Numbered from the stretch's first letter, positions 1 to 64,000 are shown. The stretch: DNA of 64,000 nt from Candidatus Microgenomates bacterium (GCA_016204995.1 JACQJR010000001.1:167793-231792); one strand, 5' to 3'. Translations and numbers: made by a program. The notes: generated by a model from the letters alone, not told the origin.

Positions 1-1296
1 AGTAGAAATAGCGTCGTTGTAATAACGCTGGGAGTCTCTGGCAACATCAAAATAAAGAATATCCCCCTTTTTAAGAGTAGGTAAATAAACCTTAAGTTGA
101 TTAAAAAACTCACGCGCCGGAAAACTCCGAGTTTGTAAAATATCATGCTGATAAATTACAGAATTATAAAGATTACCTACTCCAATTAATATTATTAATA
201 ATCTTACCACCTTACCGAAGATGCTATTTACTGACAAGGCAATAAATACGGCTCCTAGTATCCCAGTTAATGCTAAAAATGAATGGGCCATATACCTTTC
301 CACAGTACCGTAAGGAATCGTAGGATTAAAGGCGGAATAAATAATAATATTCGTCAAAAACCAAAGCGATAGAAATAGGAAAATTCGCCTCTGTTTTTTA
401 ATAAAAATTAATAAAAGAAAACCAATTATTAAAAGGATTACACCTAAAACAGCAAGAAAAGATCGATCTGGCGACTTAATGAAATTTGTCAACCAATCAG
501 GCATTATTAGATTGGCCATTGTAGATAAAGAACCATAGTACAAATCCCATTTTCCATTAATAAAAGCAAGAAGAAATTCTTTCATTTGAGGAGTTCTATT
601 AACCGAAGCTGTAGCAACGAAATTTTCAAAAATATAAAAGAATGGAACTAGCCTGATTACTGAAAATAAAATTGATGATGGGCGCCTGTTGAAAGTTAAA
701 AATATTAATTCAAAAATTACTACTATGGAAAAAAGATAATGGGTTCTATTAATAGCAAATTCTGTTGCCAGAAAAAAAGAAAGTAAAGCAAAAAGATAAT
801 AACGAAATTTGTTTTCTTTGTAAAATTTCCAATAAGCGAAAAATAATAAACCAATGGTGATAAAGCTAATACTGGTAGTAGCACTATTGGCCATCCTCCA
901 GGTTCCATCAGAAGAAATATAGCCGGCCGCGAAAATAAAACCAGCTACTCTACCACCGGATTTTCCCAAAATAATAGAGAAAGTTTTGTAAACTACAATA
1001 GTAGATATCAGGTATAAAACTAGTAGTAAAGCAAAATATGGTACCGTGTTAGTTCCAAAAAAGTAATGGATAGGAATAAAAGGCGTGGGTGTATATTTAG
1101 TGATTCCTATTCCTATTGGACCAGGACCAAAAAATCCAGCTGGCTGGTCAATATGTTCTAATTTAAAAAACAAAGCATTGTCATCTTGCCAAGGGTACAT
1201 CCATAGCATCTGTCCGTAAGAAATAAGAACTATAATAATAATGAAAACCAAAAAATGCCCGTTAATTAGTGATAGTAATTTTTTATAAATTAACAT
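1..1296 (-). CDS. Polytopic membrane protein, N-terminal part (runs off window start); paralog of the YfhO-like/GT-C group C proteins at 34391..36832 and 38253..40751
   Basis: Manual translation of the minus strand from ATG (complement 1296..1294) gives an uninterrupted ORF to position 1. It begins MLIYKKLLSLINGHFLVFIIIIVLISYGQMLWMYPWQDDNALFFKLEH. It is multi-TM, and the motif AAGYISSDGTWRMANSATT matches ASGYLGIESLTWNVAGGQI and VASGYIGVEALTWNMGAG in the two paralogs. It is absent from the ORF track because it has no in-window stop. The 14-nt overlap with the upstream gene suggests an operon. Confidence 0.5.
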   Translation of the reverse strand, partial: MLIYKKLLSLINGHFLVFIIIIVLISYGQMLWMYPWQDDNALFFKLEHIDQPAGFFGPGPIGIGITKYTPTPFIPIHYFFGTNTVPYFALLLVLYLISTIVVYKTFSIILGKSGGRVAGFIFAAGYISSDGTWRMANSATTSISFITIGLLFFAYWKFYKENKFRYYLFALLSFFLATEFAINRTHYLFSIVVIFELIFLTFNRRPSSILFSVIRLVPFFYIFENFVATASVNRTPQMKEFLLAFINGKWDLYYGSLSTMANLIMPDWLTNFIKSPDRSFLAVLGVILLIIGFLLLIFIKKQRRIFLFLSLWFLTNIIIYSAFNPTIPYGTVERYMAHSFLALTGILGAVFIALSVNSIFGKVVRLLIILIGVGNLYNSVIYQHDILQTRSFPAREFFNQLKVYLPTLKKGDILYFDVARDSQRYYNDAIST

Positions 1297-2371
1297 TATT
1301 AAAAACTGAATAAGGTAAGACAAAATGCCATTTATATCCTTTCTTTACACCTTCAACCCCCAACTTAAGAATTTTATCTAACTCCCCATATTGTTTGGTA
1401 AAAAAGTAATATGATTTTTCTTGGCTACCCCACTGCATTTTAAAATTATAAGGTCCTCCGCCTCGCGGCTTGGAGGATTCCCAGTTAAAAACTGCAAAGC
1501 TATTTTTTTTAGCCCAAAGGAGTAAATGGTTTATGAGCAAATATATCGCACCGTTTTTATATGATTCTTTAGAGCCGGAAATCATATATGTATCCACAAC
1601 CTCTTGATGATAAATTGTTAAACATCCTGCTTCAATTTTTTTACCATGCTTCACCAAAAAAAATTTTGCTCTATTTTTAGGAATAAAGTATTTTACAGCA
1701 CCTTGAAAAATTTCTTCTGGTAATGGCTCAAGATTGATGGATCTATGTCTTTCTTGGTGGATTTTATACCATTTTTTTATTTCCGCCTGATCTATTGATT
1801 CCTCCACAACTAATTTATCTAACAAGGCTTTTTTAAGCATTCTTTTCAAATTATTTCTAAAATGTGAATTAGTAAGTACCGGTTTATTCAAGTCAATAAA
1901 AAGCGTGTAGTTTTCTAGCTCCCAGGTTGGTTGAAAATATTTTCTATAAAGATTTTCATCCGGAATAAATGGAGAAGAAATAATTGTTACTAAAACGCAA
2001 TTTTTCCTTTGGGCGATATCTTCCACACCTTTTATTAATAGATTAAAAATTTCTTCTCTTTGACTTTGGTTATTTATCAACGCTCCTCCTAGTGGTCCTG
2101 GATAAGGAATAGAATTAATAATGTTGCCAAATTTAGAATTATATACATAGATTGGTAAAATACCGACAATCTTTTGGTTGTTTTTTACTAAAACATAGAT
2201 TGACTCATCAGTTTTAAAATCATTAATAGTATTTCTCCACTCTAGAGTTTGCTGGAAAAAAGCCCATGGACATTCATCCAAAAATTTCTCACACTCTTTT
2301 TCTAATTGAGCATTGCCCTTTAAAAGGTATTCTACTTTAAGTTCTTTAGAAATCACATTTTTACTTTTCAT
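1283..2371 (-). CDS. FemAB-like / GNAT-fold acyl(aminoacyl)transferase family protein (hypothetical)
   Basis: 362 aa, soluble. Its length and general composition resemble FemAB/BioF2-like acetyltransferase domain proteins often found in polysaccharide loci. No diagnostic motif was verified. Confidence 0.3.
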   Translation of the reverse strand: MKSKNVISKELKVEYLLKGNAQLEKECEKFLDECPWAFFQQTLEWRNTINDFKTDESIYVLVKNNQKIVGILPIYVYNSKFGNIINSIPYPGPLGGALINNQSQREEIFNLLIKGVEDIAQRKNCVLVTIISSPFIPDENLYRKYFQPTWELENYTLFIDLNKPVLTNSHFRNNLKRMLKKALLDKLVVEESIDQAEIKKWYKIHQERHRSINLEPLPEEIFQGAVKYFIPKNRAKFFLVKHGKKIEAGCLTIYHQEVVDTYMISGSKESYKNGAIYLLINHLLLWAKKNSFAVFNWESSKPRGGGPYNFKMQWGSQEKSYYFFTKQYGELDKILKLGVEGVKKGYKWHFVLPYSVFNNVNL

Positions 2372-2426
2372 AATTAAATTGTAGTAATAAACAATATTGT
2401 TAAGTATACTATATATGATTTTCTAA

Positions 2427-3224
2427 ATGGATTCTGTTGATTTTGCTATTATTCCTGCCGCCGGTAAAGGTTCTAGATGGGACCCCATCTCTTCTTTTGT
2501 CCCCAAGGAAATGCTCCCTTTGAATGGGACGCCTGTCATAGAATTGGTTATTCGTGAAGCAATTGAATCAAATGTCAAGAAAATAATTATAGTAATAAAT
2601 AAGGAAAAAGAAGTAATTAGAAACTTTATTAATTCTAGAAGCAACTTAAACAAATCAGCAGACTTTTATTTTGTTTATCAGGACAAACCGTTAGGAGTAA
2701 TAGATGCAGTCTACCGCGCCAGAAGTATATTAAAAGGAAAAAACTTTGCTTTACTTTTCCCTGATATGCCCTCTTATTACCAACAAATTCCACCATTGAA
2801 ACAAACTTTAGAAATTTTTAATGCTTTACCCACTGGGCATAGCGTATTGTCCTTTGCTAAATACCCCCAAAATAACATGCTTTTTTATGGAGAATTTTTA
2901 TTGAAAAAGAGAGAGAATCATTTATACGATGTCCTGCATTTATGCCCCCGCGCTAAAACTCCTACTGATATTCATCATCTAAATGACAATTTAAGAGGCG
3001 CTGGCCGTAATATCTTTTCCTTTGTTACTTTTCCTCTCATTAATCAAATTGCGGCTAAGCCATTTAAGGGAGAAATCAGTGATGCCAATCTATTGAATTT
3101 AATGTTTGAGAAAAAAATACCTATTATCGGCAAGGAGATAGATGGTTTTATCTTTGACGCGGGCACGCCAGAATTATTTGCTAAAGCTAACTGGTTTGCT
3201 ACTTTACAGAAGAAGAAATTATAA
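2427..3224 (+). CDS. Sugar-1-phosphate nucleotidylyltransferase, GalU-like (UTP--glucose-1-phosphate uridylyltransferase family)
   Basis: N-terminus AIIPAAGKGSRWDPISSFVPKEMLPL closely matches the GalU signature xIPxAGxGTRxLPxTKxxPKEMLPL. Confidence 0.55.
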   Translation: MDSVDFAIIPAAGKGSRWDPISSFVPKEMLPLNGTPVIELVIREAIESNVKKIIIVINKEKEVIRNFINSRSNLNKSADFYFVYQDKPLGVIDAVYRARSILKGKNFALLFPDMPSYYQQIPPLKQTLEIFNALPTGHSVLSFAKYPQNNMLFYGEFLLKKRENHLYDVLHLCPRAKTPTDIHHLNDNLRGAGRNIFSFVTFPLINQIAAKPFKGEISDANLLNLMFEKKIPIIGKEIDGFIFDAGTPELFAKANWFATLQKKKL

Positions 3225-3226: not shown

Positions 3227-4318
3227 TCACTTTTTGCCGGCCACGATATTGGCATAAGTTATGGTATCTTTCCCTGCTACCATTCTCCAATCAGGACAAG
3301 CGGCACATAATGAATTTAAGTTAAAATTACCGGTTAAATGCGCCTCTCTGATGCTATTTAAAAGAGCTGAATTCCACAAATCTTTCAACGAACCATCTTG
3401 AGGGTAATACCCGATATCAGCTTCATCTCTATCCCAAGCATGGGGACAATAAACAAACTTTAAAGATCCAGCTGTGCCACCCGTTAAACTAAAGCGAGTG
3501 AAAGGAAAAATACAAGGATAACGGTTTAATCCGTTAACTTTTCTAACTACCCCTTCTTGATCTTTCACAATCTCATCTTCACTCAAAACTTCGTTAAAAT
3601 TAGGAGTTAGACCAGCTGTTGAATTTAAGGGCCGAAACGAAACTTTATCAACTCCTAGTTTTTTTCCCAACTCCACAAAATCCTGCTGTTCATCTTGAGA
3701 TTGTTGTCTAACAATCATGGTGATCATAAATTCAGTATTTATTTGTTGATTTTCAGACAACTTATTTCTTGCCTCAACTGCTTTAGCAATGTTATCCGTC
3801 ACTGCCTTAAAGTAATTAATATGATGATATCTTTCAGGACGGACAACTCCATAAGTTTCTGCTGTAGCTGCATCCAAACTGATATTGATTAATTTAACAC
3901 CTGCCCGGCACAAGTCAGCAACTAATTTTTCCTTAAGCAGAATACCATTGGTGGTCAATCCTACATTAAAACCAAGTTCGCCAGCAGCATAAGTCAATAG
4001 CCCCTTAGCTTGCGGATGCAGAAGCGGCTCTCCATCCGCTGATATTTGTAAAGATGGCTTGGGGTCCCAAGTCTCGGCAATTTCCGTAAAAGCTTTCTTT
4101 AATAATTGCGGATTTGTGTAAAGCGGTTCCACTTCTTCGTGGTGGGCAATTTTTTCTTCACGGCGAAGTTGCTGACCAGGGTAACCACAATGTAGTTCGC
4201 ACCACAGATTACATTTTTTTGATAAATCTACTAATACCAAACTGGGAGGCAAATTTTGCCAGCTCTCAACTTCTTGTTGTGTTGGTGGTTGATTATAATT
4301 TCTCCTTAATATTTCCAT
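3227..4318 (-). CDS. Radical SAM-like enzyme with C-terminal Cys-rich (SPASM/twitch-like) region; non-canonical CX3CX3C cluster motif
   Basis: CNLWCELHC near the N-terminus. DGEPLLHP matches the GGE SAM-binding motif. TTNGILL matches the MoaA-like ribose motif. C-terminal cysteines sit in CPHAW...CAACPDW. Confidence 0.5.
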   Translation of the reverse strand: MEILRRNYNQPPTQQEVESWQNLPPSLVLVDLSKKCNLWCELHCGYPGQQLRREEKIAHHEEVEPLYTNPQLLKKAFTEIAETWDPKPSLQISADGEPLLHPQAKGLLTYAAGELGFNVGLTTNGILLKEKLVADLCRAGVKLINISLDAATAETYGVVRPERYHHINYFKAVTDNIAKAVEARNKLSENQQINTEFMITMIVRQQSQDEQQDFVELGKKLGVDKVSFRPLNSTAGLTPNFNEVLSEDEIVKDQEGVVRKVNGLNRYPCIFPFTRFSLTGGTAGSLKFVYCPHAWDRDEADIGYYPQDGSLKDLWNSALLNSIREAHLTGNFNLNSLCAACPDWRMVAGKDTITYANIVAGKK

Positions 4319-4360: not shown

Positions 4361-5413
4361 TCAATTTCTGAATGATAAGAAACCTGTTTTTTGATTATAT
4401 TTTAGTTTAATTTTCTGACTATTTTTCTTAAGAGATTTTTGGGCTGCTTCAAGTAGTATTACTAGATTAACTGCATCTTGCAAAGTAATGATTGGCATTT
4501 TCCTGCTAGTAGTCTTTATTAAAAATTCTTCAAAAACACTTTTTAATGGTTCTTTGTTAGGAATATGAGGAATCGTAATATCCCCATAACGCAAAGTAAA
4601 AAAATGTTTTAACAAACCGTCATCATGATTATTTTTTTCTATTCCCCTATCAAAAAGTTTTACTTTACCATCGCTTTGAGTATCATCAAATGATACCATT
4701 TTTTTATCTCCTACTAAAACAAAGGTTCTAGTTTTAATTGGATCTGCCCAACTAACTCTTAAGTTAAAAAGGGTGTTGTCGGCAAATTCTAAAGTTAAAA
4801 ATGCTACATCGTCAATTTTGGGTGTTAAAAAGGCCCGGCCGGCAGCAGTGATACCGGTAGGCTGTTTGTTTAATAAATGGGTAACCGTATAAATAAAATG
4901 AGTTGATAAATCCCACAGCGCCGAGACATCATTTCTGATTGGACCTAATGCAGTATAATCGCCATAGCCATAATGAATTTTACCAAGAGTATTTTTCATT
5001 ATTAATTCTTTAATCTTTTGGATAGCAGGATTAAAAATAAATGTATGATCAACCATTAAAATACTTCCGTTTTTATTGGCTATCTCTGCTAAATAAATAG
5101 CATCCCTGGCTGAAGAAGTAAGAGGTTTTTCCACTAACACATCTTTGCCTGACTGAAGTATTCTTTTAGCAATATCAAAGTGGTTGGCCGCCGGAACTGC
5201 CACGATTATCCCATCGGTACTTTGATCCTTTAGCAAATCACTTAAATTGGTAGTGGTTTTAACATAAGGATAAAATCGCTGAATTATTTTAAGTTTTTCA
5301 ATAGATAAATCGCAACACCAAACTAAATTTGCACCTTCATACTCGTGTACAATCCTGGCAAAATTTGGCCCCCAATGCCCCAATCCTACAATAGCTATAT
5401 TTTTAGTTTTCAT
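4361..5413 (-). CDS. Gfo/Idh/MocA family NAD(P)-dependent oxidoreductase (WbpB-like sugar 3-dehydrogenase candidate)
   Basis: N-terminal Rossmann motif IAIVGLGHWGPNFARIV and EKPL motif. Paralog of 13446..14465. Confidence 0.7.
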   Translation of the reverse strand: MKTKNIAIVGLGHWGPNFARIVHEYEGANLVWCCDLSIEKLKIIQRFYPYVKTTTNLSDLLKDQSTDGIIVAVPAANHFDIAKRILQSGKDVLVEKPLTSSARDAIYLAEIANKNGSILMVDHTFIFNPAIQKIKELIMKNTLGKIHYGYGDYTALGPIRNDVSALWDLSTHFIYTVTHLLNKQPTGITAAGRAFLTPKIDDVAFLTLEFADNTLFNLRVSWADPIKTRTFVLVGDKKMVSFDDTQSDGKVKLFDRGIEKNNHDDGLLKHFFTLRYGDITIPHIPNKEPLKSVFEEFLIKTTSRKMPIITLQDAVNLVILLEAAQKSLKKNSQKIKLKYNQKTGFLSFRN

Positions 5414-6104
5414 TGAAAGTAATTTTTATCCAGAACGTAAAAAGCTCTTTTAGATATTTTAAGTAACGCACTGGATTACCATACTTTGATCTACCCGCCG
5501 ATCTTTTATAAAATTTGGCTTTAACTTGAGCAATATTATATCCTCTGCGATAAAGGTTAACAAGTAGTTCTGCCGGCATAAAAGTATCTCTGGCAGCAAT
5601 TTTGACATTTTTTAATATTTCCCTTTTATAGGCTTGCACAAAGTGAAAATCTTCAATGGGAGTTCTAAAAAATAACTTTACCAGTAGAAAGCTGGTCATT
5701 GATGTTAATTTTCTAAAATTAGAATTAGCTGATCTGTCTTGACGGACAAAAACTATTACATCCGCGGTTTTAAATTGTTCTCCTGCTCTTTTTAAATCAT
5801 CAAGATTAAAAGCTTGATCGGCAGAATTAGTCAAAATCCATTCGTATCTGGCTTTTTTAAATCCATCCCAAATTGCCCGACCAACCCCTAAATTTTCTTT
5901 ATGAGTTATGCCTTTAACTTTTTTATATTTTTTAATTATTCCTTGGAGAATTTTGGCTGTATTATCTGTAGACCCATCATCAATCACGATAATTTCATAC
6001 TTTTTAGTAAATTTTCTTAGTTTTTGGTTATAAATTTGGATACTATCTTTAATAGCCGCTTCCTCATTAAAAGCCGGCACAATTAAAGAAAGGGAATTTA
6101 GCAT
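5403..6104 (-). CDS. GT2 family glycosyltransferase, Dpm1-like (polyprenyl-phosphate sugar synthase candidate)
   Basis: LIVPAFNEE...IIVIDDGSTDNT...ENLGVGRA motifs of GT-A/GT2. Confidence 0.75.
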   Translation of the reverse strand: MLNSLSLIVPAFNEEAAIKDSIQIYNQKLRKFTKKYEIIVIDDGSTDNTAKILQGIIKKYKKVKGITHKENLGVGRAIWDGFKKARYEWILTNSADQAFNLDDLKRAGEQFKTADVIVFVRQDRSANSNFRKLTSMTSFLLVKLFFRTPIEDFHFVQAYKREILKNVKIAARDTFMPAELLVNLYRRGYNIAQVKAKFYKRSAGRSKYGNPVRYLKYLKELFTFWIKITFNEN

Positions 6105-6158: not shown

Positions 6159-7727
6159 ATGGAAAATCTTAAAAATAACGAGCAAATAGTCTTACAAACC
6201 GAACGGCAAGATGCCAAATTAAGATTTCAATTAAATGAACATAACGCTGAAGAGTATTTAGAGAGCACAGCTTTGGTAAAAGATAAACCCTGGAGCGAGG
6301 AAGACGTAGAGCAGACTAAAAGATTTTTGTTGGCTTGTGCTCCTTTTGCTCATCCTAAAGTTTTTCCCAGCTATTGGGAACATTTAATTATCGCCTCCCT
6401 TTACGGCAAGGAATTAGCCAGAAGAACTAAAAACTCTGATTTTGATCCCTATGAAGCCCAAACATTAATGCTATTACATGATTTAGGCAGGTTAGTTGCG
6501 CCACACCGCTATTTAAGAAATGATGTAATAGAATACTCATTATTAAAACATGCCGGAGAAAGAGCAGATTTACTTAAAACATCTTTCATTTTACCAGAAT
6601 TAATTGGAGTGAAAGTTCCCGGTATCCCAGAAACTCAAAAACCATTTACTAAACTTGCAGATATGACTCTTGCTCAAAGAATTATTGACGTAGCAGATAA
6701 TTTAAGTAAAAGGACTGCCACGGGACAATTATGGACGATTAACGATCTACTAGATTATTCTGCCAAGATGGTAGCGAATTATTCGGCGGAGGGGAAAATT
6801 TGGGCCTCGGAAAGAACCGGCTTAAAAGCTATCGCCGATCCTCCTGCAGGAAAAGGCAAACTAAGATTTGCTGCTCACCTAGTCATAGAAGAAGTAGCAT
6901 GGTTAAAACAAGCTTATGGGATAGATTTTGATAAATTAAGAGATAAAATAACACAAGAATGGAACAATCGGGAGAATCAAGAATTTCTACTTGCTCTTAA
7001 AGATGCCCAGGAAACTTTAGATCAAAATGTAGACCGATTACTGGGTAAGCCTAATATTACTACTGTTGTTTTTGACGTAGGAGATGTGTTATTTCAAGGA
7101 AAAAAGAGTGAAGTATTAGATGATGAACTAATTAGAAGAATATCAGCTTTTTTCAGTTGTTCACCAGAAAATACATTAACAGCCTTTAGAACTTTACATG
7201 TTAAAGGCATGACCGGCCAAATTTCTGAAAGAGAGTATTTGGAACATTTTTGGAAAATTGCCGGAAAAACTCCGCCAGATGGTATAAAAGAATTACGCGT
7301 TCCATTTTTACATCCTGATGTTTACCAACCAAACAGAGAAATGCAAGACATCGTTAAGAACCTATCTCAAAATCCAAACCTTACAATATTCCTTTTCTCC
7401 AATGTTGTATCTGTCTTAACTCCTGTAGTTATTGCGTGCCTAAAAGAATTTTACCCAGAAATATCAGAAAGTAATTATTTATTTTCTAATCGGATAGGCG
7501 TAGCTAAAGGCGTTGACGATAAAGCCGCTTTCCAGTTAGTTTTGGAAATAATTCACCCAGATGATCCGCAGAAAATTTTATTTATTGATGATAATGAAAA
7601 ATATACCACTGCCGCTAGATCGCTTTATAATATTCGCGGCTTCACCTTTCGCGAAAATCCTTATAGGGATCAAACAGCAGATAAAAGATTTAAGCAAGAA
7701 CTCCAAAAAGCAGAGTTAATATCATAA
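6159..7727 (+). CDS. HD-domain phosphohydrolase fused to a C-terminal HAD-like hydrolase domain
   Basis: H...LLHDLGR...D(VADNL) HD motifs in the N-terminal half. C-terminal half has VVFDVGDVL (variant motif I), FLFSNV (S/T), VAKG (K) and FIDDNEKY (DD), consistent with the HAD fold. Confidence 0.45.
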   Translation: MENLKNNEQIVLQTERQDAKLRFQLNEHNAEEYLESTALVKDKPWSEEDVEQTKRFLLACAPFAHPKVFPSYWEHLIIASLYGKELARRTKNSDFDPYEAQTLMLLHDLGRLVAPHRYLRNDVIEYSLLKHAGERADLLKTSFILPELIGVKVPGIPETQKPFTKLADMTLAQRIIDVADNLSKRTATGQLWTINDLLDYSAKMVANYSAEGKIWASERTGLKAIADPPAGKGKLRFAAHLVIEEVAWLKQAYGIDFDKLRDKITQEWNNRENQEFLLALKDAQETLDQNVDRLLGKPNITTVVFDVGDVLFQGKKSEVLDDELIRRISAFFSCSPENTLTAFRTLHVKGMTGQISEREYLEHFWKIAGKTPPDGIKELRVPFLHPDVYQPNREMQDIVKNLSQNPNLTIFLFSNVVSVLTPVVIACLKEFYPEISESNYLFSNRIGVAKGVDDKAAFQLVLEIIHPDDPQKILFIDDNEKYTTAARSLYNIRGFTFRENPYRDQTADKRFKQELQKAELIS

Positions 7728-8866
7728 GTTATTTTTACCTTCCACCATAGTTTAGCCATTTGGACAAGAGTTCGGGGAATCACCATTGGCCGGACTAGCT
7801 CACCCTTAGAGCTACCACCACGGCGTTTATGCCAATGGATGGGTACTTCGGCAAATCTGGCTTTGAGTTTTAAGCATTTATAAGTCATCTCCGGCAAGAA
7901 ATTAGCACTTTTATCCTCCGACTCTATTTTAATTGATTGAACGAGTTGCCTGCGCCAAATTGATACTGTAGAAATTTCGCGGAATTTAATATCAAATAAA
8001 ATTCTGGATAAAAAATGAAATCCCCAGGAGAATATTTTTCGCATTATAGTCTCATTTAATTTTATCCTATAACCAAAAGCACCATCATAACCCCTGACTG
8101 CTTCCAGAAAGTCAGGTAATTCAGTAAAATTAAACTGGCCGTCGGCCGGTGCTAAAAAAATCAGGCGCTTTTTGGCACTGTTAAAACAAGTCCTCATCGC
8201 CCCCGTAAATCCTCTATTTTGTTTGTGATGAACAGCGCGAATGCGTTTATTATTTTTGGTCAATTTATTAATAATTTTATCTGTGCCATCTGTAGAACCA
8301 TCATTAACTAACACAATTTCATAATCCATTTTCATCTTTTGTAAAACAAATTTAGCACTTATGGCTACCTTCTCCAATGTCGCCACTTCATTGAAAGCAG
8401 GGATGACTACCGAAATTGACTCTTTTTCTATCCTTTTTAGAAATTTTTTACTTGAACCTACTACTTTGACAGGAATACCAGCAACAATAGAATAAGGAGA
8501 AATATTAGTAAATTGGGGAACTACTGCGCCGGCTGCCACCACACTATGATGACCAATTTTTGCTCCCATTAAAATTACAGCATTTGAGCCAATAAAACAG
8601 AATTCGCCGATTTCTACTGGCGCTTTCTCTATCTCACTAAACCTTCTTTCGGAAATAGCCCTTTTAACAGTAGTGTGGGTCGTAATTTTGACTCCGGAAG
8701 AGATATCTGTTCCCCGACCTATTTTGAGAGGAGCATAAAGCGCATCAATCAAACAAAATGCCCCAATCCAAACTCGCTCGCCAATTTCCGGCTGGCCTAA
8801 AACCCAGGCGTGTTTATTGTATTTATTTTTGGACAGTCCATGACTTGCAAAATCAAAGACACTCAT
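7670..8866 (-). CDS. Bifunctional protein: N-terminal left-handed beta-helix (hexapeptide) sugar N-acetyltransferase fused to C-terminal GT2 (Dpm1-like) glycosyltransferase
   Basis: Hexapeptide-repeat region IGEFCFIGSNAVILMGAKIGHHSVVAAGAVV...IVAGIPVKVV. This is followed by ISVVIPAFNE...IVLVNDGSTDGT...QNRGFTGA GT2 motifs. Confidence 0.6.
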   Translation of the reverse strand: MSVFDFASHGLSKNKYNKHAWVLGQPEIGERVWIGAFCLIDALYAPLKIGRGTDISSGVKITTHTTVKRAISERRFSEIEKAPVEIGEFCFIGSNAVILMGAKIGHHSVVAAGAVVPQFTNISPYSIVAGIPVKVVGSSKKFLKRIEKESISVVIPAFNEVATLEKVAISAKFVLQKMKMDYEIVLVNDGSTDGTDKIINKLTKNNKRIRAVHHKQNRGFTGAMRTCFNSAKKRLIFLAPADGQFNFTELPDFLEAVRGYDGAFGYRIKLNETIMRKIFSWGFHFLSRILFDIKFREISTVSIWRRQLVQSIKIESEDKSANFLPEMTYKCLKLKARFAEVPIHWHKRRGGSSKGELVRPMVIPRTLVQMAKLWWKVKITYDINSAFWSSCLNLLSAV

Positions 8867-13020: not shown

Positions 13021-13021
13021 A

Positions 13022-21664: not shown

Positions 21665-21711
21665 GGCGTATTATACTAGATTTTAATCGTGTATAATATC
21701 TAACATAAATT

Positions 21712-22804: not shown

Positions 22805-22817
22805 ACAAGTAATTAAA

Positions 22818-41458: not shown

Positions 41459-43619
<2,161 letters not shown>

Positions 43620-44474: not shown

Positions 44475-44518
44475 TTAGTTTTGATATGATATACTCATTA
44501 GACTGCAATTTGCAACCA

Positions 44519-53299: not shown

Positions 53300-53328
53300 T
53301 TGCATATAAAAGGTAGTTTTGCTAGAAT
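53300..53328 (+). promoter_or_regulatory. Putative promoter (-35 TTGCAT, 17-nt spacer, -10 TAGAAT) ending 7 nt before the ATG at 53336
   Basis: Read from the sequence. No Shine-Dalgarno. Confidence 0.35.
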
Positions 53329-53335
53329 TCTCAAT

Positions 53336-57769: not shown

Positions 57770-58910
57770 GTATTATTTGCAAAAAACTTCTAACCGATTT
57801 TTCAATACTAAAAAGTTCGGCAACTTTTTTAGTATTTCTAGTAAAACTTACTCTTTGTGATTTTTTACTCGGCAAGGTAGCTAATATTTGAGCTAACTGT
57901 TCTACGCTTTCTGATTTGAAATTTAAACCAATATGATATTTCTGAACCAAGTATTTTAGATCTGGCAAGCTGGCAACAATTAGTGGGGTACCATTTTTCA
58001 TGCTTTCGGAAAAAACCAAAGGAATACTATCACTTCTGGAGGGAATTATCAACCAATCTGACATTGCTAAAACCTGGGCAATTTTAGTTTTATCATTAAC
58101 GTTACCATAAAATTTAATAAAATTAAAAATACCTTCTGTTTGGGCTTTTTCTTTAAGACCCTTCAAAAGAGAACCATCTCCTAACATGTGAATTTCAAAT
58201 TTATTAATCTGGTCCTTAATCTTGATTAGAGCATCCAAAAAAATATCTGGTCCTTTAACCAATTCCATTCTACCAATAAATGATAAAGTTATTTTGTTTT
58301 TATTCTTAGTAATTGAAGTAGCTGGTTTACTAACAAACTGACTGGCTGATGGCAAAAATAAGCATTTTTTACCTGAAATAATCCTTACTTTATTAGCTAA
58401 ATCAATACCATCAGCCAATAAATAATCTGCTTCTCTAAGAGTTTGCTTAATTAAATATCCAACAATCGGAAACCTAGCGTAAACATAAACATCTGACCCC
58501 AATACCCAAATAGCATAAGGAATGCCAAACTTTTTTTTAACAAAGTAAGCAAATAATCCGGCAGGAAAAGCCCACATTGCCAAATTAATGTTAGGCTTTG
58601 TTTCTTCCATAATTTGGTTGGTTCTTTGTAAACCCTTAATAAAAAATAAAATTAGGTCATAAATCATAAAGGGATGCCAAATTTTTAATTGACCTAATTT
58701 TTTATTTACTCCCCAACCAAACCAATAAACAGGCACCTTTTGAATTTTCAATTTACTATCTCTCTTGCCAGGACAAACTACAAAAACATTTTGTTTTTCT
58801 TTAATTAACTCACCAGCAAAATCGTGGACGAATATGCCTGCATTTTGCCTATCGGTGGAGGAAGAGGGGTAGTTATGAGAAATAATACCTATTTTTAATT
58901 GCTGCTTCAT
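57762..58910 (-). CDS. GT4-like (GT-B) glycosyltransferase
   Basis: LSFIGRMELVKG...MLGDGS...LIIPSRSDSIPLVFSESMKNGTPLI (EX7E-like). Start at MKQQLK with an ATGA overlap. The ORF-track start was 58961. Confidence 0.65.
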   Translation of the reverse strand: MKQQLKIGIISHNYPSSSTDRQNAGIFVHDFAGELIKEKQNVFVVCPGKRDSKLKIQKVPVYWFGWGVNKKLGQLKIWHPFMIYDLILFFIKGLQRTNQIMEETKPNINLAMWAFPAGLFAYFVKKKFGIPYAIWVLGSDVYVYARFPIVGYLIKQTLREADYLLADGIDLANKVRIISGKKCLFLPSASQFVSKPATSITKNKNKITLSFIGRMELVKGPDIFLDALIKIKDQINKFEIHMLGDGSLLKGLKEKAQTEGIFNFIKFYGNVNDKTKIAQVLAMSDWLIIPSRSDSIPLVFSESMKNGTPLIVASLPDLKYLVQKYHIGLNFKSESVEQLAQILATLPSKKSQRVSFTRNTKKVAELFSIEKSVRSFLQIIHE

Positions 58911-58912
58911 TA

Positions 58913-60937
58913 TCAATCTTTTAGAATAGATAATTCTATAGCAGGATCGTGTAGAAGACAAGATTGGGCGTCTTTGGCTATAATTTTTATATATTTAGCA
59001 GGTCTGGCTGAAAAATAATAATAAATAGTATTGTCCTTTTTTGTAAGTTCACTTACTTGCTCTGTTGGAATAGGCTCTATTTCTTGACTAAATTTAATAC
59101 CATCAACTGAAGTCCAAATGTCACCATTATTTCCTTGGCAACCAATACCAATATATCCTAAAGTTAATCTCGTTAACAAAACTGGTTTTTCTAACTTAAA
59201 AATAATTTCACTATCAATTATTTTTTGACTAATTAGACCCTTGTACAACACTTCAGGTTTTCGATATTCCAGTTTGGTATGTTCTAAATCATTTTTCCAT
59301 ACCCTGGCAATTGCCATATCATCAACTTTAACTTCATAAACCGGTTCAAGTAATGTGTCTACATAATCCCAAGCATAAGGGAATAGTTTTAAAATTTTAG
59401 CAGGCGTAAGTTCTATTAAATATTCTCCCTCCCTATTAATACCAGTCCAATAACTATTTGAAAAATCTAAATCTGTTCTTAATTCGCTAGTTGCGATATT
59501 AAGACTTGTTCCCTGTATTAAAGCAATTCTAGAGTTCTGTTCAGCGTGCTTATTGAGCCATTGGATAACTTGCCAATAAGCATTACCATAGGAATTTCCG
59601 GCTGAAGGGATACCCGCTTGATAAGCACCCTTTAACCCACCAACTAAAAAATTAAAATAAACATTTTCGTTAGGATGAATTTTATAAAGAGGATATATAC
59701 TAATTAATAATAAACTTGCCACGAATAGACAATTTATTAAGATAGAATATCTAGGCAAAAATTTAATAAAATGATGACGCAACCAATCCGCACCTACCCC
59801 ACTTATTAGAGCCATAGCGGGGATATATTCCATAATTTGCCTAACCCCCCCATAAATAGAAGTATTAGGAAAGCTAACCCGACCTACTGTAACAATAAAA
59901 ATCAAAAACCATAACACAAAAACATAATTATTTTTATACCAATTATTTCTCCAATTAATTAATCCTGCTAGAAAACAAATTAGAATTAAAGGTGGTGTCG
60001 TGTACAAAATCCAACGGGCAGCATAAAAATTCCAAGCCGTGAGAGGATTAAAATCGAATGAAGATTCTGTACCTAATTCCTTGTAATAGCTAAAAACTAA
60101 AACTAAATTCCCAAAAATATCTTGCCAAAGAAAAGGCCAAATAGCTATCAAAATAGTTAGCATAATAAGAGGAAAGATTAATAATATTAAAAGTACATTT
60201 TTTTGAAAAAGGAAACTGACAAATTTCTTTTTTTCTTTAATTAGAAGCAATAACGCCCAAGGCGTAACAATAAATGGCGAAAATAAAATATTAAATTTTA
60301 CACTAAAAGCTAAACCAGCAGCGATAGCTGCAAACAAGATGTATTTAATTTTTTGTTTGTTAAAGATTTTCCATAATAGATAAAGTGTTAATACAAAAAA
60401 GAATGATTGAGCAGGATCCTTAATATTAAAATGACTCTCGGACCAAAAAAGCGGATAGCTACCCATAAAAATAGCTGAAAATATCCCGGGCCCTAAACCA
60501 AAAGTTTCTATAGCGAATAAAAAAACTAATCCCACTAAAAGGCTGCTAATAAAAATATTAAAAAGGTGATAACTAGCTATATCACCCGCTATTCCTAGTT
60601 TTTGATAGAAAATATAATTAAATAAGGCTGATAAAATATCATTTAGGGGAGGATGACCTTTGTCATCAACAAACCATGTTTGTGCACCATATGCATCATG
60701 CTGATAATAGCTTCTAGAGTGGTAATTTGGATCAGATCGGGCTTTGTCTAGTTGGTAAGGAGGTAAACCTTCATAAGTTGCTTTACCAGTTAAAAATAAT
60801 CTTAAATAACCTTGGCCTCTTAGAAAGTGCTCGGGTTCATCCCAAGACAAACCATAATGGCTATTAGTCAAAATGCCGTCAATTAAAAAAATTAGCGCAA
60901 CTAGTAGAGATAAAAAGAGATTTTTCTTCAGATGCAA
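58913..60937 (-). CDS. GT-C glycosyltransferase (group B) with C-terminal periplasmic domain
   Basis: HYGLSWDEPEHFLRGQ. WSESHFNIKDP. Contains the 112-nt tract identical to 51827..51938. Confidence 0.55.
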   Translation of the reverse strand: MHLKKNLFLSLLVALIFLIDGILTNSHYGLSWDEPEHFLRGQGYLRLFLTGKATYEGLPPYQLDKARSDPNYHSRSYYQHDAYGAQTWFVDDKGHPPLNDILSALFNYIFYQKLGIAGDIASYHLFNIFISSLLVGLVFLFAIETFGLGPGIFSAIFMGSYPLFWSESHFNIKDPAQSFFFVLTLYLLWKIFNKQKIKYILFAAIAAGLAFSVKFNILFSPFIVTPWALLLLIKEKKKFVSFLFQKNVLLILLIFPLIMLTILIAIWPFLWQDIFGNLVLVFSYYKELGTESSFDFNPLTAWNFYAARWILYTTPPLILICFLAGLINWRNNWYKNNYVFVLWFLIFIVTVGRVSFPNTSIYGGVRQIMEYIPAMALISGVGADWLRHHFIKFLPRYSILINCLFVASLLLISIYPLYKIHPNENVYFNFLVGGLKGAYQAGIPSAGNSYGNAYWQVIQWLNKHAEQNSRIALIQGTSLNIATSELRTDLDFSNSYWTGINREGEYLIELTPAKILKLFPYAWDYVDTLLEPVYEVKVDDMAIARVWKNDLEHTKLEYRKPEVLYKGLISQKIIDSEIIFKLEKPVLLTRLTLGYIGIGCQGNNGDIWTSVDGIKFSQEIEPIPTEQVSELTKKDNTIYYYFSARPAKYIKIIAKDAQSCLLHDPAIELSILKD
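59569..59680. repeat. Second copy of the 112-nt identical tract (see 51827..51938)
   Basis: Aligned by eye. Confidence 0.8.
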
Positions 60938-60945: not shown

Positions 60946-61551
60946 CTACTCAATTTGGGCAAGTTTGGTTTTAACGGAGTCTAGATAGTTGATATATTCG
61001 CTAAGGGAACCTTTTTGATCATCTGATAGTTGAGTAATTAAATAATTCAACAATATCTTTTGTTTATCAATCGACATCATAAATTTAGTTTTTAAAATCG
61101 ACATATTTACAGATTTTAGGTCTGCTGCTTTTTGAGTAAAACTTAATGCTTCTTCTACTTTACTTTTACCAAAATCAAGGGTTTTTTTGGCATTTTGATA
61201 ATCATTTTTCATCAATAATTTCTCTGCCTCTAATAATCTCTTTTCTGAAAGAGTAATATTGTATTCTGCTTTATTATAGTTTCCGAAAATAAACCATCCC
61301 CTTAATGACTCCTTAAAGAATTTTAAAAAATACAAGGAATCACTAGCGGTTTTACCAGCCGATAAGGGCCAAAAAAGTTGATAAGAATCAACGGGTGTAG
61401 GAACGGGAGTAGGCGAGGGGGTTAATAAAACAGTTTTAGTAGCCATTACATTAGAGGAAGCTAATAGTAAAAGTAAAATGACCCAAAAATTAATTAAAAA
61501 ACTTCTCATCTCCCTAAACCTAGTATAGGTATAAGCCATCCGTCCTGTCAA
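60946..61551 (-). CDS. Membrane-anchored/secreted hypothetical protein with Pro/Thr-rich linker
   Basis: N-terminal hydrophobic segment FLINFWVILLLLLASS, then TPSPTPVPTPV linker. Remainder predicted helical. Confidence 0.3.
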   Translation of the reverse strand: MTGRMAYTYTRFREMRSFLINFWVILLLLLASSNVMATKTVLLTPSPTPVPTPVDSYQLFWPLSAGKTASDSLYFLKFFKESLRGWFIFGNYNKAEYNITLSEKRLLEAEKLLMKNDYQNAKKTLDFGKSKVEEALSFTQKAADLKSVNMSILKTKFMMSIDKQKILLNYLITQLSDDQKGSLSEYINYLDSVKTKLAQIE

Positions 61552-61578: not shown

Positions 61579-62790
61579 TTGGTATCATTTAAACATTACA
61601 TGTGGCCATTTTTTACTTTAAAGCTGCAAAAGCAAAAATTAGCAGATAGTATAAACAAAGTTTTATCTCAAGCTGATTTAAGGAAAAAGATTAGAAAATT
61701 TTCTATAATCTTAGTCACTCCTATTTTTAGTATCTTTTTTACTTTATTAATCATGGAAGGGTTTATCAGGGCATTTTTACACCCTAGCGAAGCTCCTGAT
61801 ATTTATTTCAATAATAATCTAGGTAATCTTTTTGTTCCTAATCAAACTGGCTACTACATTAAAGGTAAAAACTCCGAAATTATAGCTAAATTTAACATTA
61901 ATAAACAAGGATGGAATTCGCCTTATGATTATATAGAAACTAAATCACCAACTATTAAACGCTTCGCTTTCATCGGTGACTCATTTATAGAATCTCTACA
62001 AGTTAATTATGATAAATCATACCCATATTTACTTAATGAAAAGTTAAAAAATAAAAATGTTGATGTTTATACTTTTGGCCATTCCGGTGCCAACCTAATT
62101 CATTATTCCCATATGATGGACTTTGTAGGAAATAAATACCAACCGGATTTGGTTTTTGTCAATATTGTTAGTAATGATTTCAAAGAAAGTCTTAGTGGCT
62201 ACAACCGAATAGACAATTGGTCTCTTATCTATAATAATAAAGGTTTTAGTCAAAAGTCACCCAGGGAGGTTAGTAATTTAGCGATTAAACGCTTAGCTAG
62301 AAAATCCGCCTTAGTCAGATATCTAACTATTAATCTTGATTTAATCAATACCTCTCCTTTTCTGAATAAAATTTTTTATGCAGAAACTAGACAAAATAAA
62401 TTAGATAAAAATATGGAAGAGTTATTTGATGGTAATCAGTTTTTGGAATCTATGGTTGAATATATACTTCAACAATTTTTGACTATCAGTAAAGATAATA
62501 AATTTAAGCTTGTATTAGTTTTAGATACGGATAGGCAAGCTATTTATGGTAATCAAGATCTATATAAAACTGAAAACTATAGATACAGATCGGCTGTTAA
62601 AACTGCTGCTAAAAAATTCAATATTAATGTTATAGATTTAACCGAAATTTTCCAAAAAGACTGGCAGGTTAATCACAAGAGATTTGATTGGTCCATTGAT
62701 GACCATTGGAATGAATATGGGCATGAATTAGTAGTAAATACTATTAATAATTGGTTAAATTCTTTTAATAAAAACTATAAACTTTTTTAA
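61579..62790 (+). CDS. SGNH/GDSL-family hydrolase with N-terminal TM anchor (possible glycan O-acetylesterase/acyltransferase module)
   Basis: FAFIGDSFIE (GDS block I). FGHSGAN (block II Gly). DDHWNEYGHELV (DxxH block V). The likely true start is the ATG at 61600; the ORF-track TTG is at 61579. Confidence 0.6.
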   Translation: MVSFKHYMWPFFTLKLQKQKLADSINKVLSQADLRKKIRKFSIILVTPIFSIFFTLLIMEGFIRAFLHPSEAPDIYFNNNLGNLFVPNQTGYYIKGKNSEIIAKFNINKQGWNSPYDYIETKSPTIKRFAFIGDSFIESLQVNYDKSYPYLLNEKLKNKNVDVYTFGHSGANLIHYSHMMDFVGNKYQPDLVFVNIVSNDFKESLSGYNRIDNWSLIYNNKGFSQKSPREVSNLAIKRLARKSALVRYLTINLDLINTSPFLNKIFYAETRQNKLDKNMEELFDGNQFLESMVEYILQQFLTISKDNKFKLVLVLDTDRQAIYGNQDLYKTENYRYRSAVKTAAKKFNINVIDLTEIFQKDWQVNHKRFDWSIDDHWNEYGHELVVNTINNWLNSFNKNYKLF

Positions 62791-63883
62791 CTAATTGCAA
62801 ACTTTGCTGGCGAGATTTATTCCAATCAAAATTTTTACTCCACCTTAATGCACCTTGTTGTAACTTTTGATATTCTTTTTGATTAGCTAATAAATCAACT
62901 ATATTACTGGCTAAATTTTCTGGAGAATTTTGACTACACAAAATTCCACTTACACCTTCCTCAATTGAATCAATTATTCCTTGCGATTTGTAGGCTACCA
63001 CGGGTGTCCCTACACTATTGGCTTCAATATTAACCAAACCCCATCCTTCATGTACTGATGGATTAACTAAAATATGACTTCTTGACAGAAGTGTAAATTT
63101 TTTGGCTTGTGTCACATATCCCCAAAATTTAATCTTTTTGGATAAATTTAATTTATTAACTAATCTTTTTAATTGATTAAAATATTTGGCCGTCTCTGGT
63201 TTCCCAATTACCCAAAATTGCCAAGTAGGTGGTAATAAAGAAAAACATTTAATAGCATCCTCTATACCCTTATCTTTTGATAATATTCCCAGATAAACAA
63301 CTGTTTTAACTTTTAACTTTGTACTTTTAACTTTTAACTTAGTAGTTATTACTCCATGTGGTATTACTGCAATATTTTTTGGGGGTATTCCCATTTTAAT
63401 AACATCGGCTTTTGCTGATTCTGAACCAGTCATAAATGGAGTTTTTTTATAGATTAAAAAAATAAAAGGTTCAACCCAATAACCCAATAACCCAATAACC
63501 CAATTTAAGGGTCGCGGCAAAGGATTTAAAAACCAAACTTTTCTAGCGGTTTCTTGAATTACTGCTAATTTTGGTTTTCTAACATATAGTGGAGTAAAAA
63601 ATGGCAAGCCATGAAATTGATCAACAATGAAATCAAAATTACTTTTATTTTTCAGATAATAATAAAATCCTGCTATTTGAACGCCTAAATATTGATAACC
63701 TCCGCGAATAATTTTTACACCTCCTATATATTCTTCTGGTTGAGAATTAGGAAAGCGTGAAGAAAAAAGCATCACTTGATACCCCGCCTTAATCCACCCT
63801 TTCATATGCTGATGCATTACCTGCTCTGCTCCACCAGCCAAAGGATGTTTTGGATCTCTCCAGGAAAAAACTAAAATGTTCAT
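62765..63883 (-). CDS. GT4 family (GT-B) glycosyltransferase
   Basis: HEGWGLVNIEANSVGTPVV EX7E motif. Contains an internal 8-nt x4 repeat and a 21-nt tandem repeat. Confidence 0.7.
   Translation of the reverse strand: MNILVFSWRDPKHPLAGGAEQVMHQHMKGWIKAGYQVMLFSSRFPNSQPEEYIGGVKIIRGGYQYLGVQIAGFYYYLKNKSNFDFIVDQFHGLPFFTPLYVRKPKLAVIQETARKVWFLNPLPRPLNWVIGLLGYWVEPFIFLIYKKTPFMTGSESAKADVIKMGIPPKNIAVIPHGVITTKLKVKSTKLKVKTVVYLGILSKDKGIEDAIKCFSLLPPTWQFWVIGKPETAKYFNQLKRLVNKLNLSKKIKFWGYVTQAKKFTLLSRSHILVNPSVHEGWGLVNIEANSVGTPVVAYKSQGIIDSIEEGVSGILCSQNSPENLASNIVDLLANQKEYQKLQQGALRWSKNFDWNKSRQQSLQLVKKVYSFY
63303..63344. repeat. 21-nt tandem direct repeat x2 (GTTTTAACTTTTAACTTTGTA / CTTTTAACTTTTAACTTAGTA) inside the GT4 coding region, in frame (KLKVKST/KLKVKTV)
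   Basis: 19/21 identity between the two copies. Confidence 0.7.
63473..63504. repeat. Octanucleotide simple-sequence repeat (AACCCAAT)x4 inside the GT4 coding region
   Basis: Four perfect tandem copies read from the sequence. On the coding strand they encode NWVIGLLGYWV. Confidence 0.8.
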
Positions 63884-64000
63884 ATCATTTAAGGATGAAA
63901 AATTTTAAGCTATAAATGTTCTTACCCTTAAAAGGGTTAGAGGATAAAGCTTAACTGCCCTTGTAAACCATTTAGAAGCTTCTTTTATATTACGCTCCAT

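Follow-up and report, generated by a model that had tools for sequence, protein, structure and literature searches.

How a single locus builds a surface glycan, and by what route, is the question raised by a 64,000-nt stretch of DNA from Candidatus Microgenomates bacterium, a member of the Candidate Phyla Radiation (CPR; Patescibacteria). Throughout, "the window" refers to this whole stretch, coordinates are window positions and genes are named by their first coordinate. The genomes of CPR bacteria are minimal, and an attached life on other cells is assumed for them; to our knowledge, their envelope chemistry is essentially unknown. The window contains Dpm1-like enzymes of glycosyltransferase family 2 (GT2), polytopic membrane transferases of the GT-C type and several nucleotide-sugar pathways, and it appears to be essentially the core of a single cell-surface or envelope glycosylation super-locus. 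We consider it likely that this locus is a multiplied three/four-component extracytoplasmic glycosylation system in a monoderm CPR bacterium. An interpretation made earlier from the DNA alone (the sequence-only reading) had described the whole window as one envelope-glycosylation island; this essentially holds, and the locus is even larger than was proposed.

Extent of the locus

The window is AT-rich (GC 0.29-0.39) and densely coding, with 48 open reading frames (ORFs) of at least 100 aa in addition to one gene cut by the left edge, and no tRNA gene was found in it. Its sequence also occurs in GCA_964556865.1 as well as two Logan assemblies, and identical sequence was found in four assemblies or samples. 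For an exact 36-mer of the window, the GTDB-representative and JGI metagenome collections gave no match. Flanking DNA was obtained from another assembly via the terminal genes of the window, with overlaps of 12,371 nt and 4,375 nt that contain zero mismatches. With these flanks the locus spans at least 76.6 kb; its GT-C-like genes number at least 18 and its Dpm1-like GT2 genes 7. The size is a lower bound because the readable DNA at both ends stops inside membrane-protein genes. In the left flank, the gene cut by the window edge continues into an 841-aa GT-C with a CBM32 domain, and a further paralog lies beyond it. In the right flank (window-equivalent 64,001-73,883), the gene order is a TPR protein, a GT2, a Wzx-type protein, a PIG-V-like GT-C, a GT4, a GT2 and three PMT_2 proteins.

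The GT-C-like genes account for ~26.8 kb, or ~42%, of the window by summed gene coordinates, and the locus for at least 12% of the 0.61 Mb contig. This suggests that surface glycans are a major investment of this organism; they plausibly also help to determine specificity for host or phage.

Six GT2 enzymes of the Dpm1/GtrB/ArnC type

Pfam recognizes eight GT2 domains in the window, which fall into two groups, six Dpm1-like and two conventional. Transmembrane is abbreviated TM, and A1 denotes our alignment of the six.

5403-6104, minus strand: Dpm1/ArnC-like GT2, 233 aa, no TM helix; best NCBIfam match ArnC, profile positions 6-223 of 316; in alignment A1
7670-8866, minus strand: hexapeptide acyltransferase (N-terminal) fused to a Dpm1/ArnC-like GT2; Pfam, NCBIfam, alignment A1
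27133-27885, minus strand: Dpm1-like GT2; best PDB match Pyrococcus DPMS (5mlz), E 1e-17, residues 1-209
29584-30846, plus strand: methyltransferase domain (N-terminal) fused to a Dpm1-like GT2; Pfam, NCBIfam, alignment A1
44486-45463, plus strand: ArnC/GtrB-type GT2 with two C-terminal TM helices (252-270 and 283-301)
46505-47263, plus strand: Dpm1/ArnC-like GT2; PDB match ArnC, E 9e-20, residues 11-230
18418-19458, minus strand: conventional (non-Dpm1-like) GT2 with one C-terminal TM helix; NCBIfam, PDB
43635-44474, minus strand: conventional GT2; groups with 18418 and not with the six by best NCBIfam matches, BLAST and A1 profile score

The six Dpm1-like enzymes match PF00535 with 78-105 bits, are mutually related by BLAST and can be aligned together. 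Alignment A1 shows conserved DxS..D, DxD and RxxGxSK motifs, with D43/S45/D47, D96, R201 and G204 invariant. In all six, the NCBIfam models that cover the whole catalytic domain are ArnC, AglJ, a haloarchaeal dolichyl-phosphate (Dol-P)-hexose transferase, PgfS and PpgS, each a polyprenyl-phosphate glycosyltransferase, whereas conventional GT2 models such as PgaC and TuaG match only over the N-terminal ~100 residues. PDB was queried with 44486, 46505 and 27133, with 18418 as a contrast and with the GT2 of the right flank, while 5403, 7670 and 29584 were judged by NCBIfam only. The match of 44486 to ArnC (E 7e-39, residues 17-307) and GtrB (E 2e-30) is full length and includes the two TM helices, and the flank enzyme, a seventh Dpm1-like GT2, has DPMS as its best match (E 1e-11). 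ArnC, GtrB and DPMS are all missing from the PDB matches of the contrast 18418. These comparisons support the assignment of the six as putative polyprenyl-phosphate sugar synthases of the Dpm1/GtrB/ArnC type. The list of six given by the sequence-only reading, including two fused genes, was therefore correct, its gene 44519 being 44486 here.

Thirteen GT-C-like membrane proteins

We found 13 polytopic GT-C-like proteins in the window, 12 complete and one cut at the left edge, where at least 11 had been counted before. The calls rest on Pfam, on profile-profile comparison with hhalign or on the predicted fold.

1-1296, minus strand: GT-C-like, N-terminal 430 aa of an 841-aa gene; open frame; family C TM hidden Markov model (HMM) E 6e-15; WQDDN after TM1
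14882-18421, minus strand: AftD-like GT-C, 1179 aa, with a predicted large extracytoplasmic region carrying DUF5667 and a C-terminal TM anchor; PF11847 28 bits (cut-off 26); 11 + 1 TM helices
19464-21803, minus strand: GT-C family A, 730 aa from the NCBI start; PMT_2 65 bits; NCBI name GT39
24921-27164, plus strand: GT-C family A; PMT 53.8 bits
27882-29513, minus strand: GT-C, 543 aa, no Pfam model; AlphaFold2 (AF2), Foldseek, hhalign
32236-34386, plus strand: GT-C family A; PMT_2 53 bits
34391-36832, minus strand: GT-C family C with C-terminal CBM32 (F5/8 type C); Pfam, BLAST, hhalign, HMM
36823-38256, minus strand: probable GT-C, 477 aa; PMT_2 22 bits (below cut-off); NCBI name GT39; 10 TM helices; GDE motif
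38253-40751, minus strand: GT-C family C with C-terminal CBM32
47964-49106, minus strand: compact GT-C, 373-380 aa; PMT_2 31 bits; 36% identical to right-flank R_382
49103-51172, minus strand: GT-C family B, below the Pfam cut-off; paralog of 51174 and 58913
51174-53162, minus strand: GT-C family B, above the Pfam cut-off
58913-60937, minus strand: GT-C family B, third paralog; PMT_2 38 bits; 40-45% identical to 49103 and 51174

In the mechanical list of longest ORFs, several TTG or GTG starts are probably set too far upstream; the longest-ORF start of 19464 overlaps the divergent DUF362 gene (21712-22779) by 92 nt, and the NCBI start is later. The product of 19464-21803 is 100% identical to an NCBI protein of Candidatus Microgenomates bacterium on a 609,565-nt contig, and other window proteins belong to this record with locus tags HY404_00910 to HY404_01085. 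In NCBI, several window proteins are annotated as "glycosyltransferase family 39" or as "phospholipid carrier-dependent glycosyltransferase", and the 543-aa, 1179-aa, CBM32 and HD proteins as "hypothetical" or "discoidin domain-containing".

By hydropathy, all 13 proteins have 7-12 TM helices. Six (19464, 24921, 32236, 47964, 51174 and 58913) score above the Pfam PMT/PMT_2 cut-off and 14882 above that of GT-C_AftD; there is no Pfam GT-C match for 27882, 34391, 38253 and the left-end gene. Profile comparison connects these to the others: the membrane domain of family C matches the 543-aa family with a probability of 98.9% over 393 columns, the 543-aa family matches the PMT_2 proteins of family A with 96.6% (E 6e-10), and family C matches family A with 90.8%. 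The three family B paralogs share 40-45% mutual identity, and R_382, the PIG-V-like paralog of 47964 in the right flank, matches Mannosyl_trans2.

An acidic motif after TM1 is a hallmark of GT-C enzymes. In 11 of the 13 proteins, a basic N-terminus and TM1 are followed within ~5-13 residues by an acidic DE or DD motif, in the variants HTDE, HPDE, WDE, YEDF/YDDF, QDD, QQDEW and GDE. The exceptions are 14882, which has WDDH deeper in the first loop, and 47964, which has no DE directly after TM1. The positive-inside rule, the sole basis for their topology, would place these loops outside the cytoplasmic membrane.

The AF2 models obtained are helical bundles. The model of 27882 has a pLDDT of 93.9, and its top Foldseek matches in PDB are PglB, STT3, DPY19, ALG9, ArnT, AftA/B, EmbC and Pmt4 with probabilities of 0.9-1.0, while transporters reach a TM-score of only ~0.13. 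On fold and HMM evidence, we rejected an identity as transporters or Wzy polymerases for the polytopic proteins. The protein 27882 has no Pfam or NCBIfam match and is named hypothetical by NCBI, yet its family comprises 715 clusters at 50% identity and is spread across Microgenomates lineages. Nearly invariant in it are QDEW, which follows TM1, and two motifs of the C-terminal domain, P..Q.G.GY and GxGFG; because the WWDYG motif is absent, 27882 is not an STT3-type oligosaccharyltransferase.

Most of the GT-C proteins had been proposed to carry lectin-like C-terminal domains. In fact, we observed CBM32 (F5/8 type C) domains on three of the 13 only, namely 34391, 38253 and the left-end gene. 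At Pfam E <= 1, the C-termini of family B gave only two sub-threshold F5/8C matches (17.6 and 14.5 bits) and those of family A gave none, and hhalign compared both with the CBM32 region of family C at a probability of at most 17%. Lectin-like domains on families A and B are consequently unsupported by either method.

The matches to PMT raise the possibility that protein O-glycosylation is the main activity of the PMT-like GT-C proteins, which would then use polyprenyl-phosphate sugars to decorate S-layer, pilus or other secreted proteins, as in the Ppm1/Pmt system of Actinobacteria, and would not build a polysaccharide. Families A and B reach 44.6, 53.8 and 45.3 bits with PF02366 (PMT), all over the cut-off, the best PDB matches of the family A profile are yeast Pmt1 (E 1.8e-14) and Pmt4 (E 1e-8), and CPR cells have abundant surface proteins (PMC4736985). 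However, the CBM32 domains point to glycan acceptors, as in a published precedent (PMC11127046), and the GT4 and conventional GT2 Leloir enzymes along with a flippase of the Wzx type in the flank are typical of oligo- or polysaccharide assembly. Moreover, neither a MIR domain nor another protein-acceptor feature was detected, and a Ser/Thr-rich candidate acceptor gene is absent from the window. We therefore regard protein O-glycosylation as the main function of these enzymes as unlikely; individual PMT-like proteins could act on glycan or on protein.

A natural fusion couples a GT2 to a GT-C in relatives

Lipid-linked donors made by the GT2 enzymes had been proposed to feed the GT-C proteins, and the relatives of the locus back this coupling. 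In four of them (P0010-P0013; L003:1082-4462), a single polypeptide of 1117-1140 aa joins the ortholog of 29584 to the ortholog of 19464. Its N-terminal part corresponds to 29584 (methyltransferase and Dpm1-like GT2; 46-49% identity) and its C-terminal part to 19464 (39-42% identity). As a Rosetta-stone fusion, this arrangement supports a predicted pairing of one particular donor synthase with one particular transferase. A literature search for GT2-GT-C fusions found no description of one. In the window itself, 4 nt are shared between the start of GT2 27133 and the stop of GT-C 27882. We also took a census of 26 GTDB loci that contain a member of the 543-aa family, counting Dpm1-like GT2 enzymes at 100 bits or more, and found one within 10 kb of the 543-aa family GT-C in 14 of them. 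The named loci of this census belong to Woesebacteria, Daviesbacteria, Blackburnbacteria, Levyibacteriota and other Patescibacteria. Ten GTDB records with close homologs of this GT-C (L008, L011, L015, L017-L019, L023, L024, L031 and L033) are titled "uncultured Gammaproteobacteria bacterium" (third-party-annotation co-assembly metagenome-assembled genomes); given their named neighbours, such as Woesebacteria, these titles look like mislabels.

As to whether the island is conserved or strain-specific, related Microgenomates contigs, including L003 and L004, contain similar islands with reshuffled content: the same families occur at 24-66% identity, in differing numbers and orders. A conserved triplet of 18418, 14882 and 14535 (window 14535-19458, minus strand) recurs at L004:14802-19537. 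It consists of a conventional GT2 with one TM helix, an AftD-like GT-C that is 1112-1179 aa long and has DUF5667 as well as an anchor at its C-terminus (35% identity between 14882 and its L004 ortholog), and a small membrane protein of 116-122 aa without a known family, whose counterpart at the same position in the relative is 26% identical to 14535 (pairwise E 2e-8).

This reshuffling also fits the idea that the GT-C paralogs are alternative decoration modules, each of which would add one side-chain to a common backbone and which together would diversify the surface antigen, as in serotype variation or in the evasion of phage and host recognition; known three-component systems indeed add side-chain decorations and thereby drive diversity among serotypes (PMC11127046, PMC10821137). 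Against this idea, all 13 GT-C frames are intact (except for the cut at the window edge) within one genome and are identical in four assemblies or samples, and neither phase-variation repeats nor invertible elements were seen, although no search was aimed at them. We consider such a set of alternatives possible but not probable. It is compatible with a multiplied three/four-component system, from which it differs in pathway topology only.

A Wzx-type flippase next to the window

The sequence-only reading had recognized no Wzx, Wzy, Wzz, ABC exporter or ligase and had taken this as a sign of a different assembly route. Within the window we confirmed the absence, as no ORF matches the Wzx, Wzy, Wzz, ABC-transporter, ligase or initiating phosphoglycosyltransferase families at E <= 1e-3. 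However, a Wzx-type MOP flippase (PF01943, Polysacc_synt; 58 bits against a cut-off of 28.2) lies 1.7 kb past the right edge, so that the absence of Wzx holds for the window only. The flippase is part of a same-strand run at L007:5760-8956 (window-equivalent ~64,900-68,100) in which it stands between the DPMS-like GT2 and the PIG-V-like compact GT-C, and this string looks like a complete three-component module. The different route was consequently not upheld, and the arrangement points to the known three/four-component logic, heavily multiplied. Within the window, the small membrane protein 14535 is a candidate for a flippase or for an activator subunit like GacJ or WpsB.

Could the locus nevertheless be a conventional Wzx/Wzy polysaccharide locus, in which several of the polytopic proteins are polymerase or ligase and the Dpm1-like GT2 enzymes are ordinary cytoplasmic transferases? 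The flank flippase and the Leloir GT4 and GT2 enzymes would fit, and proteins of the GT-C fold are capable of polymerization or ligation, a role that the lactococcal model proposes for WpsH/I/J (PMC10821137). Nonetheless, in the four-component GacIJKL/Wps arrangement the C55-P-linked sugar or oligosaccharide that a GT-C uses is flipped by a Wzx-type protein (PMC10821137) and a MOP/MATE flippase moves undecaprenyl-phosphate sugars in the GT136 systems (PMC11127046), and with these precedents the flank flippase is no argument for the classical pathway. PF02397, PF00953, PF04932 and PF02706 have no match in the window or the flanks at the thresholds used, and Wzy_C, Wzz, ABC exporter and initiating phosphoglycosyltransferase families are unmatched across the 76.6 kb. 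In addition, the GT2 enzymes match polyprenyl-phosphate transferases over the full catalytic domain (three in PDB, six in NCBIfam), and the GT2-GT-C fusion in the relatives is hard to explain in such a pathway. Since its initiator, Wzy, Wzz/PCP and ligase families are all unmatched in the 76.6 kb at these thresholds, we did not assign the locus to the classical O-antigen/capsule type, and we think this explanation very improbable.

Predicted sugar supply and tailoring genes

The other genes of the window are as follows.

1283-2371, minus strand: FemAB/GNAT-like aminoacyl or acyl transferase; Pfam Acetyltransf_6 and FemAB; NCBIfam FemAB 66 bits, below cut-off
2427-3224, plus strand: sugar-1-phosphate nucleotidyltransferase (GalU/RmlA-like N-terminal domain); Pfam, NCBIfam
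3227-4318, minus strand: radical SAM enzyme 1; PF04055 38.7 bits
4361-5413, minus strand: GFO/IDH/MocA oxidoreductase, UDP-GlcNAc 3-dehydrogenase-like; Pfam, NCBIfam
6159-7727, plus strand: HD phosphohydrolase with HAD-like domain; HD 28.7 bits (cut-off 22), HAD 21.3 bits (below cut-off)
8868-9845, minus strand: sugar N-formyltransferase; Pfam, NCBIfam
9808-10980, minus strand: DegT-type aminotransferase; Pfam, NCBIfam
10935-11915, minus strand: SDR dehydratase/epimerase; Pfam, NCBIfam
11902-13020, minus strand: aminotransferase; Pfam, NCBIfam
13022-13504, minus strand: hexapeptide acetyltransferase; Pfam, NCBIfam
13446-14465, minus strand: 3-dehydrogenase-like oxidoreductase; Pfam, NCBIfam
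14535-14939, minus strand: small membrane protein, 116-134 aa, 3-4 TM helices, no Pfam or NCBIfam match
21712-22779, plus strand: DUF362 protein
22776-23951, plus strand: dTDP-glucose 4,6-dehydratase-like SDR
24051-24860, plus strand: weak HD-like protein; HD 19.0 bits, below cut-off
30988-32199, plus strand: radical SAM/SPASM enzyme 2, between the Dpm1-like GT2 fusion 29584 and GT-C 32236
40748-41380, minus strand: SAM methyltransferase
41459-42631, minus strand: GT4
42612-43592, minus strand: GDP-L-fucose synthase-like SDR (Fcl); 273 bits
45472-46482, plus strand: GDP-mannose 4,6-dehydratase (Gmd); TIGR01472 390 bits
47250-48002, plus strand: SAM methyltransferase
53300-54709, plus strand: weak HD-like protein; HD 17.2 bits, below cut-off
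54716-55288, minus strand: 190-aa protein, no family
55298-57769, minus strand: fused PglF/PseB-like 4,6-dehydratase and DegT aminotransferase
57762-58961, minus strand: GT4
60946-61551, minus strand: DUF5667 membrane-anchored protein; Pfam
61579-62790, plus strand: membrane-anchored GDSL/SGNH esterase or acyltransferase; Pfam
62765-63883, minus strand: GT4; Pfam

The pathways proposed earlier for GDP-fucose and for 2,3-diacetamido, N-formyl amino and 4-amino-dideoxy sugars are supported at the family level. Gmd and Fcl would make up a GDP-fucose pathway, the three genes at 8868-11915 a putative Arn-like N-formyl amino-sugar module and the three at 11902-14465 a putative module for a sugar of the 2,3-diacetamido type. 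The two radical SAM enzymes noticed earlier are real; neither 3227 nor 30988 matched an NCBIfam equivalog, and they may be sugar-tailoring radical enzymes. As for the three HD phosphohydrolases reported with them, 6159 is above the Pfam cut-off but the scores of 24051 and 53300 stay below it, and in 24051 an FD takes the place of the canonical HD dyad. The three are mutually unrelated and dispersed in the locus. The FemAB-like protein 1283 and the GDSL/SGNH protein 61579 suggest an aminoacyl or O-acyl decoration of the glycan.

The sequence-only reading had further proposed an assembly by many sequential single-sugar additions outside the membrane. As the only kind of step this was not upheld, since three GT4 and two conventional GT2 Leloir enzymes are encoded in the window, and glycan assembly is probably a hybrid of cytoplasmic and extracytoplasmic steps.

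A model for the locus

We built a model of glycan assembly on the observed gene content, the family and fold assignments, the linkage of the genes and the fusion in the relatives. First, cytoplasmic enzymes would make GDP-fucose or a related 6-deoxyhexose as well as 2,3-diacetamido, N-formyl or N-acyl 4-amino-dideoxy and bacillosamine-like sugars, possibly also in methylated forms. Second, the six Dpm1/ArnC/GtrB-type GT2 enzymes (seven with the flank) would load single sugars on polyprenyl phosphate at the membrane's inner face. In the fused enzymes, N-acylation or methylation might be coupled to this loading, and the Leloir GT4 and GT2 enzymes might extend some of the lipid-linked intermediates, as in the lactococcal Wps model. 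Third, the lipid-linked sugars would be flipped, for which the Wzx-type MOP protein of the right flank and perhaps the small protein 14535 are candidates. Fourth, the GT-C array (13 members within the window and at least 18 in the whole locus) would move the sugars onto an envelope acceptor outside the membrane. For the three GT-C proteins that bear CBM32, a glycan is the most likely acceptor; the analogues are GT136 ORF12, Emb and AftD, and GT-C enzymes whose CBM binds the acceptor glycan have been described (PMC11127046). The donor identities, the flipping, the order of the steps and the acceptor are given here as we infer them from these assignments.

Several observations weigh against this model. 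All six GT2 enzymes score far under the NCBIfam equivalog cut-offs, so that their donor sugars are not assignable. Five of the six also lack the TM helices typical of GtrB and ArnC, which only 44486 has in full; the C-terminus of 46505 contains one hydrophobic helix and those of 5403, 7670, 27133 and 29584 none. Genuine members of this enzyme class without TM helices do exist, such as human DPM1 and the catalytic domain of mycobacterial Ppm1. On the GT-C side, the assignments of 36823 and 49103 (below the Pfam cut-off) and of 14882 (2 bits above it) are weak. A conserved operon of a GT2 and the 543-aa GT-C was rejected, the two being directly adjacent in one of the 26 loci of the census. Finally, a flippase of the GtrA, SMR, MATE or Wzx type is not recognizable within the window, and an initiating phosphoglycosyltransferase, an LCP ligase and Wzy were not found across the 76.6 kb.

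A bolder version of the multiplied three/four-component system is that the main surface polymer is built largely outside the membrane by an arabinan-like line of GT-C enzymes, which would draw on at least six distinct polyprenyl-phosphate sugars, including N-formyl or N-acyl amino-dideoxy and methylated ones, through pairs of synthase and transferase coupled so closely that relatives have them fused into one enzyme that makes and uses the donor. We put this forward as a speculation that is rather unlikely. If it were true, a reduced CPR genome would rely on extracytoplasmic GT-C glycosylation as its dominant means of building the envelope, and attachment to the host would likely depend on it. 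The GT-C families without a Pfam model, the natural GT2-GT-C fusion and the fused enzymes that may combine tailoring with loading are concrete leads, the last of them for in vitro work.

Comparison with known systems

The Arn pathway (ArnA/B/C/D/E/F/T) resembles the locus in its aminotransferase, formyltransferase, dehydratase-type SDR, ArnC-like GT2 and ArnT-family (PMT_2) GT-C, and in the idea of loading an N-formylated amino sugar on a polyprenyl phosphate. However, the SDR of the window resembles a 4,6-dehydratase/epimerase and not the ArnA decarboxylase, and the equivalog scores are 159 bits for ArnC (cut-off 529), 302 for ArnB (631) and 193 for ArnA (777). The ArnD deformylase and the SMR pair ArnE/F were not found in the window. 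The general view is that CPR bacteria are monoderm and have no lipid A, so that a lipid A acceptor would be missing. With sub-cut-off scores, ArnD and ArnE/F missing and no lipid A expected, membership in the Arn pathway was rejected.

The Ppm1 and Pmt (GT39) system shares with the locus the PMT/PMT_2 matches, a DE that follows TM1 and a donor synthase of the Dpm1-like kind. Unlike it, the window encodes many paralogs, no MIR domain, CBM32 on some of the GT-C proteins and diverse pathways for sugars other than mannose.

In mycobacterial arabinogalactan and lipoarabinomannan assembly (Emb, AftA-D, Mpt, PimE, Ppm1), many GT-C paralogs share a few polyprenyl-phosphate sugar donors and extend, outside the membrane, a polymer primed in the cytoplasm, and the AftD-like giant GT-C of the window, with its predicted large extracytoplasmic region, is a further likeness. 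Here, in contrast, the donors would be made by GT2 enzymes from nucleotide sugars, and our CPR bacterium is unrelated and has a genome several-fold smaller. No UbiA-type DPPRS, DprE1/E2 or galactan gene is present among the window ORFs. An arabinan machinery dependent on decaprenyl-phosphate arabinose was rejected, as DPPRS and DprE1/E2 are missing and the AftD-like N-terminal domain scores weakly.

In logic, the locus resembles the three/four-component systems GtrA/B/V, CsbB/GtcA/YfhO, GacIJKL, WpsA/B/G/J and the GT136 pentofuranose systems, all of which combine a GT2 synthase of a polyprenyl-phosphate sugar, a flippase (GtrA, SMR, MATE or Wzx-type) and a GT-C acting outside the membrane. Some of their GT-C enzymes have a C-terminal CBM and some of the systems have small membrane activators; GacIJKL and WpsABGJ use a Wzx-type flippase together with a small activator protein (PMC10821137), and the right flank of our locus has an uninterrupted run of GT2, Wzx and GT-C. 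Unlike these systems, the window contains no GtrA, SMR or MATE gene, five of its six GT2 enzymes are without TM helices, and GT2 domains are fused to an acyltransferase or a methyltransferase and, in the relatives, to a GT-C. The known loci consist of one or a few modules, whereas at least seven synthases and at least 18 GT-C proteins are encoded here.

We found nothing specific in the literature on an expansion of GT-C or GT39 enzymes in CPR bacteria; a passing remark mentions ~8 Dol-P-mannosyltransferase-like genes in Peribacteria (PMC4736985). In summary, the three/four-component and Aft/Emb-like logic of the locus is known, and what is new is its scale and composition: at least 18 GT-C genes, two GT-C families without a Pfam model (one the 543-aa family, the other family C with its CBM32 domains), and fusions that join a GT2 to a GT-C or to a tailoring enzyme.

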